Below, piece after piece: positions 2,288-51,603 of a stretch of DNA of 57,549 bases (within the stretch, counting starts at the first letter, position 1; the number at the start of each line of letters is the position of its first letter). The stretch comes from an uncultured virus (IMG/VR IMGVR_UViG_3300044294_000547) (lineage: Duplodnaviria; Heunggongvirae; Uroviricota; Caudoviricetes). Location: the IMG/VR virus record IMGVR_UViG_3300044294_000547. One strand, 5' to 3'. The notes under the pieces are model-generated. The model was not told where the DNA came from, did no database searches, and saw only the letters and a list, made by a program, of their open reading frames with translations. The translations under genes were made by a program, and so were the position numbers.

Positions 2288-4084
2288 TCATTCAACAGTT
2301 ATGTTGCCCTGCGAACTGATCACATTCCATTCTGTGTTTGCGACGCTGCATACTAGTTCGACGCAATCTTTTGGATCGTTGCTCGCTAGATATCCCGAAA
2401 CACCAACGGTTGTATCCATGTTTCCAAAATGGATGATCTGACCGTGGTTCTGTGCAATACGCCATGTGTTTTGGAGACCACTCACCCTCACTATTTTGCC
2501 CACCGCAGAAGAAGAAGGTAGTGTGAGAACGAGCGTTCCTTCATTCTTGTTGGCAAAAACTCCGGTGTCAACCGAAAGACCCTGATCGTCTGTGACGACG
2601 CTCCAGATAATCATGCCACCGCCTGTAACGGTCGACCAAGACAACTCGGCGACTGAGTCATCCACCGAAGCAATGGTGAGAACTTGGTTTGTCGAACCAA
2701 TCGATGGGGGCATGACATATGTGGAATCAGATGGCAAGGAAGACGGAGCCCTAACCGCCACGCAGCTTGAAGAATCTGCATCTGCAAGACGAACAGACCC
2801 GACCGCGTCGAGCTGAAGATTACCATCGGACAAAATCGCAAAAGTTCCAGATTTGTCTGGAAGTGTCAGAGTTCTGTCAACTGTTGGTTCTTCTGTCTGG
2901 ATCGTTGTTTGGTACGAGTTGATCGTGCCGCTGTCAAAAACAAGATTGCTACCGATGATGCGTATGTCACCATCGCCCACGACACGTCCCTGATCGTCAA
3001 CCTCAAATACCGTATGACCGTCAATGTCTCTCACCTGAAATGCTGTCGAGCCATCGAAGGTTGTCGCACGGATTGCGAGTGAGCCACAGAAGCTGACATG
3101 CTGACAATTGTTTGAATAGGGGTCATAATAAGGGTCTTCTGCAGGCCAAGACCAGTTATGAAACCAACCTGCCCTAGTAATCTTCTGTCTTGTATATCCG
3201 TCGAGATAAGCGGCATCAACCCCATATATCAGTGATCCATCTGCAGATTGGTACTTGAGAAAACTTTCGAAGGTAGGAACATCTCCTGCTCCGTTGCCAA
3301 CATCTCTAGTTGCAGCCGTACCAAGCCCGAGCGTGGTTCTCTGGGTGTAGGCATCGGGATCATCAAGCAGAGCCTTGCCTGCTACCGTGATATCTCCGCC
3401 GAGTTTGGATGTTGAAACCACTCCGAAATCAATCGTCCATGTGGATCCAAAGTTACTGACGGTAATGTCGCCCTTGTCTCCGTCTGTGATGCCTAAGCCA
3501 CCAGACGGAGAAGATGCCACCCATGCAGAACCAGTCCATGTGGGAACCTGCCCAGATGTTGCACCACTCTGTGCTATTTTTGATAGCGGCACGGAAGACA
3601 CGGAAACTGTTACTGCACCATCATTGGATGATGACACGGATATGGTTCCGTCTTGGTTTGACAGACCATCAAGTCTTGGGGGAGACAAAAGCCGCCAAAC
3701 TGTGCCGTCCCACTGCCATTTACGTCGGCCGTGAATGATGATCTGACTGACTACCTGAGACTGGGCCAATACGAGCGGCGTGGTGGCTGCAGAAAGTTGT
3801 AAGAAGTCTCCCTCAGAACCGAACTCGACCCACGCAGACCTTCCCTGTGAATCTGTGTACCACACTGCCTCCCTGCCGGTTACTGGATTTATCCAGCGTT
3901 CTCCTGAATACGGCGATGGAGGGGGAGTGGGCGATATTTCAGTATGCTGACTACTAGCGGCGCCGGGAACCCACTTTTCTTGAGCTTGGTTCCACACCAG
4001 AGTGTTTCCATCCTGCGGCTGCTGTCTTGCTATATCAGCGAGATCTCTCAGTCTCGAAATCTGTACATTTGGAGGTATAGCCAC
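2288..4084 (-). CDS. Tail-fibre-like mosaic virion protein (598 aa)
   Basis: Typical fibre modules: GATSGQVPTWTGSAW, DGDKGDITVS, ALLDDPDAYTQRTTLGLGTAAT, DRTLTLPDKSGT, and a C-terminal LTLPSS...WRIAQN...VELVC...WNVISSQGN domain. GTG start; adjacent to another fibre gene. Confidence 0.75.
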   Translation of the reverse strand: MAIPPNVQISRLRDLADIARQQPQDGNTLVWNQAQEKWVPGAASSQHTEISPTPPPSPYSGERWINPVTGREAVWYTDSQGRSAWVEFGSEGDFLQLSAATTPLVLAQSQVVSQIIIHGRRKWQWDGTVWRLLSPPRLDGLSNQDGTISVSSSNDGAVTVSVSSVPLSKIAQSGATSGQVPTWTGSAWVASSPSGGLGITDGDKGDITVSNFGSTWTIDFGVVSTSKLGGDITVAGKALLDDPDAYTQRTTLGLGTAATRDVGNGAGDVPTFESFLKYQSADGSLIYGVDAAYLDGYTRQKITRAGWFHNWSWPAEDPYYDPYSNNCQHVSFCGSLAIRATTFDGSTAFQVRDIDGHTVFEVDDQGRVVGDGDIRIIGSNLVFDSGTINSYQTTIQTEEPTVDRTLTLPDKSGTFAILSDGNLQLDAVGSVRLADADSSSCVAVRAPSSLPSDSTYVMPPSIGSTNQVLTIASVDDSVAELSWSTVTGGGMIIWSVVTDDQGLSVDTGVFANKNEGTLVLTLPSSSAVGKIVRVSGLQNTWRIAQNHGQIIHFGNMDTTVGVSGYLASNDPKDCVELVCSVANTEWNVISSQGNITVE

Positions 4085-4199
4085 AAAGGATGTTTCATAA
4101 AAAATGAGTCTTTTCCCCCGTCAACAAACTTCTTCATATGGATAAGTTGATGAATTTTAAAGATTTTTCCGTTTTCGAACACCCAAAGGACGAAATAAT

Positions 4200-4680
4200 T
4201 GGATAGGTCTCTCGCCTGTATCGGAGACCAAAATCTTGGTTTGGCGATTAGGGGGGTCGCCTGATGGGTTTTGAGCAAACGCCCCCGACGGACGAAAGTC
4301 TGGTCCAATAGCTCAAGTATGCTCAGGAGTCGGGAGCTGTGAAGCATGATGCGTACACAAGACGCATGTGCACCGATGGGGTTTCTACAGACTGCAGGAA
4401 GTCTGCCCGCACACCATCCCAGGTGTGCTGATGAGACATGTCGACCAACCATGGTCGGATGGGATGATGCATTGTGATGGAGGATGACCTCTTGCCAGTT
4501 TTTACATGCATTAAAATATTTTTGGCAAGAGTGGCAAATACAAGGGGATATTCTATCAACCCCCAAGGGTTATGTAATAATCTTAAACCCACATATAAAT
4601 ATAATTTAACTCTACACCGTTGGACCTTCGGTCCAACGGCTGTGGTGCACATCCGGCGTAGCCAGGATGGTGCACCACTA
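4200..4680 (+). ncRNA. Candidate large structured non-coding RNA
   Basis: Intergenic, with at least 11 consecutive stem-loops, GAAA and CUUCG loops, G-U pairs that work only on the + strand, and a loop ATCCCA (4416-4421) complementary to TGGGAT (4460-4465). No convincing ORF. Confidence 0.55.
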
Positions 4681-4739
4681 CTTGTTTGGATTTGTATTTT
4701 ATTGAGTTATTCTCTGTGTAAAGAAGAAATGGACCATTA

Positions 4740-4764
4740 TTTTCTGAACTATGAGTTCAGAAAA
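4740..4764. terminator. 11-bp inverted repeat, probable terminator downstream of the ATPase gene
   Basis: ttttctgaact-atg-agttcagaaaa, 3 nt past the stop of 4768..5640(-). Confidence 0.55.
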
Positions 4765-4767
4765 CAT

Positions 4768-5640
4768 TTATTCAGAAGATGCATCAGACCAATCTGGATG
4801 CATTTTCTGCATGTCGATCAGAGATGATTCACCCCACATACTGCGGACAGTTCTCAGTATGCTATCACTATGTGTTGTGCACAGAAACTGTGTTTGGGGG
4901 AATTGGATGTTGAGAGCCCTGACTAGACGAGGATGTCTTCGAAAATAGACATGCATCTCAAGATTGTCAATAAGAGCCATTCCCCTGTCATCGCTCAATT
5001 TGGTACAGATGTTACGCAACAGTGTTGCTATCTTTTTCTCTCCATCGCTCATCCTCTTGTGGTGAACCCTGGTAGATCCCTTTCTGATGCAGAAATCTTG
5101 GTAGAAATCAATCCTTTCACCCGATTCGTTTGTTGTCACAAGTTTCCCCAGTTCACAAGGCAATCCATAGACTTCATCAGCCAAATGAAGAAACTTTTCC
5201 CCCAAATTCGATGGGAGTTGAAACTTGTACATATTCATGGGGTGGTCTGCATCACAATATGCAGCCCAACCATCTGATCCCGAAGGAGCTTCTTCAAGTC
5301 CGTTTTCAACTATTTCTCCTCCCATGATGGAGACATTGAACACTCCATGTTTATGAACAAATTCTGCATGCATACTACATGGCTCTGAAGGGGGGATGTA
5401 GGCAGCCATTGTCGGGTCATAATCAGGGTTGTATGTTAATTTTCTGAACAACATAGAATTATCACGACCCCGCAGCATCCTTGGGGTGGAAACAATCCTG
5501 ATGGCGTGCATGAGAGTTGATTTACCCGTACCGTTTGGTCCGAAAAAAACAGAGAACGGTCTGTTTTCTGGATTGAAGTCAAAACTCACATCCCTCAATC
5601 CACAAAAATTCTTCAGTTTCAAACTTTTGAGCCAATACAT
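4768..5640 (-). CDS. ABC/SMC-like (AAA_21/AAA_15-type) ATPase
   Basis: N-terminal LKSLKLKNF, Walker A GPNGTGKST, signature MSDGEKK, Walker B/D-loop ALIDNLEMH, H-loop TTHS. Confidence 0.85.
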   Translation of the reverse strand: MYWLKSLKLKNFCGLRDVSFDFNPENRPFSVFFGPNGTGKSTLMHAIRIVSTPRMLRGRDNSMLFRKLTYNPDYDPTMAAYIPPSEPCSMHAEFVHKHGVFNVSIMGGEIVENGLEEAPSGSDGWAAYCDADHPMNMYKFQLPSNLGEKFLHLADEVYGLPCELGKLVTTNESGERIDFYQDFCIRKGSTRVHHKRMSDGEKKIATLLRNICTKLSDDRGMALIDNLEMHVYFRRHPRLVRALNIQFPQTQFLCTTHSDSILRTVRSMWGESSLIDMQKMHPDWSDASSE

Positions 5641-42245: not shown

Positions 42246-42270
42246 GATTAAATTATACGCTCATCGACAA

Positions 42271-42344
42271 CGGGACTGGCGGGACTCGAACCCCCAACCT
42301 GCCGCTTAGAAGGCGGCTGCTCTTTCCAATTGAGCTACAGCCCC
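42271..42344 (-). tRNA. tRNA-Arg(UCU)
   Basis: GGGGCTG TA GCTC AATTGGAAA GAGC A GCCGC CT-TCT-AA GCGGC AGGTT GGGGG TTCGAGT CCCGC CAGTCCC G; one T-stem mismatch; CCA not encoded. Confidence 0.93.
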
Positions 42345-42351
42345 GAATTCA

Positions 42352-42742: not shown

Positions 42743-42815
42743 TGACACCTCTGGGGATCGAACCCAGGACTTAACGGTTAAAAGCCGCTTGCTCTACCAG
42801 CTGAGCTAAGGTGTC
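42743..42815 (-). tRNA. tRNA-Lys(UUU)
   Basis: GACACCT TA GCTC AGCTGGTA GAGC A AGCGG CT-TTT-AA CCGTT AAGTC CTGGG TTCGATC CCCAG AGGTGTC A; CCA not encoded. Confidence 0.95.
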
Positions 42816-50961: not shown

Positions 50962-50970
50962 AAGATTCAC

Positions 50971-51069
50971 ATGGATGAGGAAGAATTCAATACTGTTGCA
51001 GTCAAGTTCATCGCTGCAACAGCAAGTTTCGTTTTGGGGATGATCATCGCGCAGATGTTCGGCTTCTAG
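50971..51069 (+). CDS. Small single-TM peptide (32 aa)
   Basis: MDEEEFNTVAVKFIAATASFVLGMIIAQMFGF, 9 nt after the previous stop. Confidence 0.45.
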   Translation: MDEEEFNTVAVKFIAATASFVLGMIIAQMFGF

Positions 51070-51495
51070 GACGACAGCCTCAAAACTGTGTCTAGACCGT
51101 TCCTGAAAACCTACGGAAATCTAGAAAGCGTAAAAACGTCCCAAATCCCCTGTTCCATTCCTGCTTCATCGAAGTTGGTTTCACTTCCGGCAACAAACCG
51201 AAAGCCAAAGCCTTCCTCTCCACAGGCGTTTCACATCTCCGACAAATTGGCGGCGACATTCTCTAAATTAACACTCGCATTATAATTATGATCACGGTCA
51301 TGGTGGATACCGCAAGGACAAGTCCAATCGCGATCTGCGAGTGTCAAGTCCTCCTTTGTCCGCACCCTCTCCATCGCCTCATTTCTGAGATTTTCATTTG
51401 GCGAAAGCCCGACTCGGGTCTAGCCGTTGCCCAAACAAGATTATTTGGTCATATTCATGAGCAATTGATCAGTGCCACTGGCCGTCTCCGCCGTA

Positions 51496-51540
51496 ATTTT
51501 TTTTTGCAGACCCCCCTCTGGGGGCTGCAGAAATTTTTTA
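51496..51540. terminator. Hairpin between convergent operons, probable terminator
   Basis: tgcag-a-ccccc-ctct-ggggg-ctgca flanked by T/A runs. Confidence 0.55.
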
Positions 51541-51603
51541 GAAAAACAAATTTTCGGGGCACACAAAACGATCTTTGGTTTTTTTTGGGGGGGCAGCTCC
51601 CGT

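Follow-up and report, generated by a model that had tools for sequence, protein, structure and literature searches.

The sequence analysed here is a 57,549-nt stretch of DNA (hereafter the window) that is part of an uncultured jumbo phage and encodes a ribonucleotide reductase (RNR), a sigma factor, thymidylate synthase, DNA methyltransferases, and tail-fibre proteins. A gene-free gap of 683 nt (4085-4767) lies between ORF 2288-4084 and ORF 4768-5640, both on the minus strand. An earlier note, made from the letters alone, had remarked on a gap of about 680 bp in a genome of mostly short gaps, and measurement bears this out, the median gap between 70 greedily chosen ORFs being 13 nt. Outside the same greedy set there is a second long stretch of 642 nt (50962-51603), which is overlapped by shorter ORFs. 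On one side of the gap, ORF 2288-4084 encodes a 598-aa tail-fibre-like protein with a weak DUF2793 match, the N-terminus of which is conserved in sister loci, and the gene that follows it matches tail-fibre PHROGs. On the other side, ORF 4768-5640 encodes a 290-aa PtuA-like ABC-type ATPase of the AAA_21 kind, matching the AAA_21, SMC_N, and PtuA models. It is of the minimal PtuA-like type, with no HNH or other partner gene alongside, and it belongs to a family whose members, approximately 290 aa in size, are encoded on large contigs of up to 548 kb (71 matches with E no higher than 1e-10). The proposed + strand RNA discussed below would be divergent from the tail-fibre-like gene and convergent with the ATPase gene, its 3' hairpins facing the end of the ATPase gene from approximately 90 nt away. 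The nearest record, G001 (164 kb, estimated to be 39% complete), is identical across the gap. The runs that carry the window's own sequence are lake and freshwater-sediment metagenomes, and the run search returned no RNA runs carrying it.

Three lineages of the locus were compared, namely that of the window, that of L002 (IMG/VR records L002-L004 and L022), and that of L035, which comes from metagenome contigs, was found by a degenerate pattern scan, and includes a Logan contig of run X22. Contigs from four DNA runs yielded the window's sequence and the L035 lineage only. Conservation across the gap is strikingly uneven. A core of 346 nt on the + strand (4196-4541) has pairwise identities of 92.5, 87.9, and 89.9% among the three lineages, and the region of the 3' hairpins (4613-4680) has identities of 87-96%, while the rest of the gap falls to 74-85% (4085-4195), 55-58% (4542-4612), and 57-70% (4681-4767), and third codon positions of both flanking genes are 61-84% identical. 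The constraint on the core equals that of first codon positions, although it is noncoding, and by these sequence comparisons the core is noncoding DNA under purifying selection. A coding sequence is excluded because frameshifting 1-nt indels occur within the core, at about 4251, 4370, and 4498; its substitutions lack codon periodicity (9/14/17), and a test for a protein-coding gene across the three lineages returned neither a kept frame nor a third-position bias. The codon-position pattern of a decayed gene, which the earlier note had named among the signs that would speak against an RNA, is absent. The only shared frame on the minus strand switches after the indel near 4251, so that the C-terminal halves of its products are unrelated between lineages. 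An ORF of 172 codons with a TTG start (4048-4566, minus), which overlaps both the RNA core and the start of the tail-fibre-like gene, is likely a false gene call because its frame is not kept in relatives, and gene callers will tend to set this spurious ORF over the RNA.

The earlier note had described the gap as nearly tiled with hairpins. All twelve of its stems, and the complementarity between ATCCCA and TGGGAT, are present in the window; set against L035 and L002, most of the stems are kept and four are not conserved. At the 5' end, its ggtctc/gagacc stem is retained as part of hairpin H1 (4201-4236; GGAU/AUCU, GGUCUC/GAGACC, and CG/CG), which sits inside a block of 39 nt that is invariant in the three lineages. 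Its ggcgatt/ggtcgcc stem corresponds to hairpin H2 (4243-4261; GGCGA/UCGCC), which is kept with one double change, A-U to C-G in L002, and one change of C-G to U-G in L035; the G-rich loop of H2 (4253-4256) can pair with CCCC at 4282-4285, a putative and invariant pairing. The stem UUGAGC/GCUCAA (4271-4316) is likewise invariant and encloses a GNRA hairpin (4287-4305), the gac-GAAA-gtc of the earlier note, whose loop (4294-4297) is GAAA in two lineages and GUAA in L002, the GNRA form being retained. A competing partner for the UUGAGC stem, UGCUCAGGA at 4320-4328, pairs in all three lineages. Further downstream, hairpin H8 (4409-4428; GCACACC/GGUGUGC, loop AUCCCA) is kept with two changes in L002 that give U-G and G-U, paired on the + strand only, and hairpin H9 (4441-4458; UCGACCA/UGGUCGG) is kept with one change, C4445 to U, that gives U-G in both L035 and L002. 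The stem ctcttgcca/tggcaagag (4489-4531) is invariant in the three lineages and covaries in the sister clade described below, and the two 3' hairpins are also kept. The remaining stems fared less well. The atgcgt/acgcat stem is weak, since it acquires A.C and A.G in relatives, although L035 re-pairs it in another register; cagact/agtctg is broken by U.U in L002, and an alternative, UUUCU/AGGAA (4382-4386/4396-4400), places both variable bases in its loop; and gggg-ata/tatc-aa-cccc and gggtt/aaccc, which lie in the poorly conserved linker (55-58% identity), are absent from L035 and L002. The fold is provisional, because several stems have competing partners, and for the 5' two-thirds of the core it is read from three close lineages in which most pairs never vary. 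A hammerhead-like sequence, CUGAUGAG at 4427-4434, was considered and set aside, as it is not conserved in L002.

The earlier note had placed the RNA on the + strand, and the pattern of change in its window-defined stems agrees, with eight changes to G-U against one to A.C (binomial p 0.039), alongside two double changes and two breaks in the same three-lineage tally; a change to G-U leaves the bases paired on the + strand only, since the minus strand would read A.C. In a curated structure of 114 pairs, 99.1% of cells are paired across the three lineages, and pairing falls to 34-42% when partners are slid by 1-3 columns. Four of the 114 pairs change on both sides, compared with 1.6±0.9 in shuffles (9 of 500 reach four). 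The covariation that the earlier note had proposed to look for is thus present, in these four pairs and, more extensively, in 27 of 109 predicted pairs of the sister clade. Folding energy is less informative. The 481-nt element folds better than dinucleotide shuffles (z -4.21 on the + strand, -5.65 on the minus strand), yet this signal derives mainly from the 3' hairpins and the stem 4489-4531; the core by itself is marginal (z -1.72 on the + strand, with 6 of 100 shuffles as good, and -2.75 on the minus strand, with 1 of 100), and for its own G+C content has a z of -1.58, with 4.5% of 996 window-sized segments as low. The energy of the core being unremarkable, thermodynamics neither proves an RNA nor picks its strand.

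These same data bear on the possibility that the element functions on the minus strand, as a long structured 5' leader of the tail-fibre operon, downstream of the terminators that end the ATPase gene. That strand carries both flanking genes, has the lower z-scores, and contains a promoter-like site (4578-4550). That site, however, falls in the linker of 55-58% identity, the changes in stems run eight to one toward pairs that are G-U on the + strand and A.C on the minus strand, the + orientation is that of the GNRA loop and of the sister clade's UUCG loops, and the G-U pairs of the stem 4489-4531 and its extension become mismatches when read from the other strand. A minus-strand leader is consequently regarded as very unlikely.

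The feature that defines the family is an H-type pseudoknot on the + strand (4465-4535), in which a helix S1 (4465-4472/4506-4513) crosses a helix S2 (4489-4498/4522-4531). S1 is missing from the stems of the earlier note and was pointed to by RNAalifold; it shows two double changes and one single change among the three lineages. S2 is the earlier note's own stem 4489-4531, so that the best-supported pseudoknot of the locus is S1 crossing that stem and not the pairing that the note had proposed. Since U4532 is bulged, C4488, immediately before S2, pairs with G4533, the first G of GGC. Two unpaired motifs accompany the helices, GAUGGAGG at 4476-4483 and UGGC at 4532-4535, which take the form GAUGGRAG and UGGC in the family as a whole. 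A hairpin with one compensatory change (4511-4516/4520-4525) competes with S1 and S2. The pseudoknot of the earlier note joins the H8 loop, which provides its 5' half (4416-4421), to UGGGAU at 4460-4465, which provides its 3' half and abuts S1. All six bases are complementary, and the single informative change, A4416 to G, gives G-U, leaving this pairing plausible, not proven. It would stack on S1, and in the sister clade the six bases directly 5' of S1 likewise pair with an upstream segment, which offers an analogy, without amounting to proof.

The sister clade was reached through the ATPase. An alignment-based scan provided 35 loci with ATPase relatives, for 30 of which the ORFs beyond the ATPase were listed. 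At 13 of the 30, which comprise 8 distinct sequences and have an ATPase identity of 44-48%, a long stretch poor in ORFs comes after the ATPase, and approximately 600 nt of it are noncoding once the start of the tail-fibre gene is allowed for. It lies in the same syntenic slot as in the window, and the 13 stretches have a mutual identity of 66-89%. From five sister sequences a fold of 109 pairs was predicted, of which 27 are compensated; it lies on the strand opposite the ATPase and has two hairpins at its end, one of them capped by a conserved UUCG loop. This sister RNA is itself a candidate new RNA, better supported than that of the window, and eight of its loci gave no match to Rfam at E up to 0.1. 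It is approximately 490 nt long and is located at L142:3387-3876 (minus), in L143, L144, L146, L148, L150, and L151, and at about 3350-3860 (minus) in L141; it also carries a twice-repeated ACAGAAACGG motif. The two clades have the same gene order, with a 111-aa gene followed by the ATPase, the RNA, and the tail-fibre N-terminus. In each, the RNA occupies the space from the ATPase 3' end to the start of the tail-fibre gene, is encoded on the strand opposite to them, and finishes with a pair of hairpins. Because the gene order of the whole slot is conserved, the RNA is syntenic and not tied specifically to the ATPase. At 17 more distant loci the next gene follows close behind the ATPase, and the RNA was found at these neither by model R3, built from the second domain of the sister RNA, nor by the pseudoknot descriptor described below.

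The same pseudoknot topology and the same motifs are found at all 13 sister-clade loci. In the family the order is the 5' strand of S1, 2-3 nt, (R)AUGG(N)AG, the 5' strand of S2 starting with CUYU, a loop, the 3' strand of S1, a further loop, the 3' strand of S2 ending in RAG, and then UGGC. S1 occurs in eight distinct sequences (for example, UGAUGCAU/AUGCAUUA, UGAUACACCU/GGGUGUAUCA, GAUUCUGAGA/UCUCAGAAUU, and CUAGGA/UCCUAG) and S2 in five (for example, CUCUUGCCAG/UUGGCAAGAG, CUUUAUAU/AUAUAAAG, and CUCGCGUGAG/UUUACGCGAG), and both helices are fully covariant throughout the family. When the pseudoknot is taken with one adjacent hairpin, the sister alignment has 27 pairs, of which 8 are compensated, compared with 4.6±1.4 in shuffles (8 of 500 as many), and their covariation score of 0.298 was reached by none of 500 shuffles, which averaged 0.174. 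A descriptor that requires ATGG, an S2 of at least 7 bp ending before TGGC, and a crossing S1 of at least 6 bp matches 13 of 13 sister loci and all three lineages of the window's clade, every family match being on the strand opposite the ATPase. It gives one match in the 57.5-kb window, none in 191,257 nt of shuffled loci, and two further matches, probably spurious, among 34 loci scanned. As a test the descriptor is weakened because it was written after both sets of sequences had been viewed, a circumstance that leaves the covariation it exposed unaffected. Of the alignments that model R3 produces in the window, one is full-length, that at 4460-4587 on the + strand. It scores 12.2 bits, with E 0.17 when 2 kb are searched and E 4.8 as the third of six hits when the whole window is searched; as a link between the clades it is suggestive only and not significant alone. 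Beyond this domain the two RNAs have diverged widely: nhmmer with sister profiles finds nothing in the window's gap, model R1 finds nothing in the sister loci, and model R2 finds nothing in the + strand core. On the sequences compared, similarity between the clades is limited to the pseudoknot domain, the rest of the RNA being unalignable, and the 5' domain has been replaced almost wholly between them while the pseudoknot and the gene position were retained. Such replacement points to a modular RNA with its function within approximately 70 nucleotides.

Retention of the pseudoknot through turnover of its sequence also weighs on whether the hairpins act as DNA, for instance as part of an origin of replication, a packaging site, or clustered sites for protein binding. 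Strongly conserved noncoding DNA with many inverted repeats and an invariant block of 39 nt is what such an element might look like; yet strand-asymmetric G-U changes, compensatory changes, and a pseudoknot kept through complete turnover are unexpected for DNA sites, there are no iterons or tandem repeats, and five related records hold no paralogous copy. The preference of the earlier note for RNA over a DNA cruciform stands, and there is very little probability left for an element that works as DNA.

Searches against known families returned nothing that would name the RNA. Rfam 15 (4227 covariance models) run on the whole window identifies two tRNAs, at 42.3 and 42.7 kb; these are the minus-strand genes for tRNA-Arg (TCT, 42270-42345) and tRNA-Lys (TTT, 42743-42815), given by the Rfam scan and ARAGORN and lying 38 kb from the RNA. 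ARAGORN finds only these two, elsewhere in the window, in agreement with the earlier note, which had seen no tmRNA. Within 3950-4900, at E up to 10, the two best Rfam hits scored 18.8 and 17.3 bits, where the thresholds are 64.5 and 45, and neither GOLLD (RF01998) nor ROOL (RF03087) is among the four matches. Searches for further members were similarly bounded. No phage record in INPHARED carries the RNA by blastn, pattern scans of viral contigs returned the L002 lineage alone (one 17-mer also gave three chance loci), and pattern scans of bacterial genome contigs found no RNA. Among 79 loci of RNR-gene relatives, a BLAST with the RNA gave no credible match in 43 and R1 gave none in 76; the tail-fibre protein is barely conserved in 30 of these relatives. 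R3, run on 71 records, found only the 12 that bear its own training lineages, and 74 records screened with a sequence pattern of the pseudoknot gave no convincing new member, the pattern as written being unable to match the window's own clade. Paralogous copies of the RNA are absent from five related records. The article listings and abstracts searched contain nothing on this RNA. As far as the searched collections show, the family comprises 11 distinct sequences from a single jumbo-phage clade.

The earlier note had suggested that the RNA either forms a class of its own or has diverged from a known class, with GOLLD and ROOL as known large phage RNAs. The former appears to apply, in that the RNA represents a new family among the large structured RNAs of phages, is limited to a narrow clade, and has no match in Rfam 15. 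Like the RNA of the window, GOLLD and ROOL are phage-borne and several hundred nt long, with many helices and pseudoknots, and GOLLD is reported to have been first found in lake metagenomes. The window RNA is smaller (approximately 480 nt), has its tRNA genes 38 kb away, is found in one phage clade, and matches neither model. The likeness invites the reading that the RNA assembles by itself into a multimeric particle made solely of RNA, its copies held together by loop-loop or palindrome contacts, as is reported for ROOL and GOLLD. A large, phage-borne, pseudoknotted orphan that contains the self-complementary elements AUGCAU and GGUGCACC, and whose loop complementarities could act between molecules, would suit this; the missing match to either model does not, and S1 covaries like an intramolecular helix, with the proviso that covariation cannot separate contacts within a molecule from those between molecules. 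We hold such a particle to be improbable.

The limits of the transcript are suggested by conservation and by the 3' hairpins. Transcription of the + strand probably starts near 4200, where conservation begins, from a presumed promoter region (4130-4199) that would be arranged back-to-back and shared with the divergent tail-fibre operon. The most -10-like hexamer there is AATAAT (4194-4199), and GGACG(A)AATAATT is conserved among the lineages; the one + strand site given by a consensus scan, at 4492-4520, falls within the core, and ahead of the core the scan called none of the sigma-70 type on this strand. Downstream, an A+U-rich variable linker (4542-4612; 55-58% identity) separates the core from two hairpins. 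T1 (4617-4639) has 10 bp, one of which varies from A-U in the window to G-U in L002 and G-C in L035, and its loop reads UUCG on the + strand in the window and on the minus strand in relatives. T2 (4642-4678) has 16 bp and two bulges, and all of its paired bases are invariant, changes being confined to the loop (4659) and a bulge (4669). Both hairpins are strong and conserved, and the consensus scan calls no terminator at either, the + strand tail being only moderately U-rich; T2 goes uncalled because it has no clean T run. T2 is the probable end of the RNA, and T1 and T2 together are probably a two-way stop shared with the ATPase gene, transcription ending at this double hairpin (4617-4678), which would also close the convergent ATPase gene. 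A palindrome flagged as terminator-like further on (4740-4764) was rejected, its U run being on the wrong side and its sequence not conserved.

This arrangement, in which a complex conserved domain is followed by a variable linker and then by two hairpins approximately 90 nt from the convergent ATPase gene's 3' end, would also suit a regulated antisense element, in which the core would sense a ligand or protein and + strand transcription would either stop at 4617-4678 or run on to silence the convergent ATPase gene. Mutually exclusive partners are available for such switching, 4271-4276 pairing with either 4311-4316 or 4320-4328, and 4511-4516/4520-4525 competing with S1 and S2. Against this, the 3' hairpins lack a U tract and resemble a two-way stop, the T1 loop flips strand between lineages, no riboswitch family matches, and no expression platform is recognisable because the linker between core and hairpins is not conserved. 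Regulated antisense action is on balance unlikely. A comparable layout is known from the type I toxin-antitoxin antisense RNAs RatA and SR4, which are convergent with a protein gene and share a two-way terminator region with it, as the window RNA appears to do, so that the 3' ends could overlap. RatA and SR4 are approximately 200 nt long, act through 3' overlap, and target small toxic peptides, whereas the conserved part of the window RNA lies outside any overlap and its neighbour is an ATPase.

Taken together, the gap 4085-4767 most likely contains an independent + strand gene for a noncoding RNA of approximately 480 nt belonging to an uncatalogued family, a reading drawn from comparison of sequences. 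The large structured + strand RNA proposed in the earlier note thus finds support in purifying selection, the lack of a frame, strand-biased changes, covariation, and the absence of an Rfam match. The RNA would consist of four parts, namely 5' local hairpins that vary between clades (4200-4460), the pseudoknot (4465-4535), the A+U-rich linker, and the two 3' hairpins, with the pseudoknot presumably fixing the geometry of the invariant single-stranded GAUGGRAG and UGGC. This RNA would be kept by a clade of jumbo phages from lakes, in a single syntenic slot that separates the ATPase gene from the tail-fibre genes. Granted the RNA, we tentatively favour, at somewhat less than even confidence, that it acts in trans as a stable scaffold whose pseudoknot motifs are bound by a phage or host protein, because a 70-nt pseudoknot with two motifs survives turnover of the rest of the molecule. 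Phage phi29 provides a precedent for this kind of role in its pRNA, a phage-encoded, stand-alone structured RNA that works within a protein machine. The pRNA is 120-174 nt long and belongs to small phi29-like phages; its fold is different, and the window RNA has neither a match to it in Rfam nor a link to packaging.

One candidate for a protein partner is the adjacent PtuA-like ATPase, for which, by analogy with the retron msDNA and PtuAB, the RNA could be the nucleic-acid partner and the pseudoknot the docking site. Were this so, a phage-borne RNA-ATPase module would act in conflicts between phages or against host immunity. The ATPase is adjacent at 16 of 16 RNA-bearing loci, while more distant phages keep the ATPase without the RNA, and general synteny explains the adjacency equally well; a partnership with this ATPase is a doubtful prospect. 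Large intricate RNAs without a known job are rare, and those that have been characterised turned out to be ribozymes, cores of ribonucleoproteins, or self-assembling cages. The window adds one more large orphan RNA of jumbo phages, with a compact pseudoknot whose two invariant motifs offer a handle for pull-down, probing, and structure work.

Several minor observations accompany the locus. Short direct repeats are spaced by approximately 102 nt (4182-4195/4284-4297 and 4287-4302/4390-4405), and (C/U)GAUGGG(G)UUU occurs at 4261 and 4373; an old internal duplication in units of approximately 102 nt was considered and dropped as weak (z 2.6, with 3 of 300 shuffles as good). A look-alike of 19-20 nt to the 3' side of the first hairpin (4219-4237) occurs in three related records, at G001:64431-64450, G002:16942-16960, and G003:77813-77831, where it lies in coding DNA in the same sense and is probably due to chance. 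Among the RNR-gene relatives, the match to the RNR large subunit spans approximately 3.5-3.65 kb in L063, L084, L107, L113, and L115, compared with the usual length of approximately 2.5 kb, which suggests an intein or intron within the gene.
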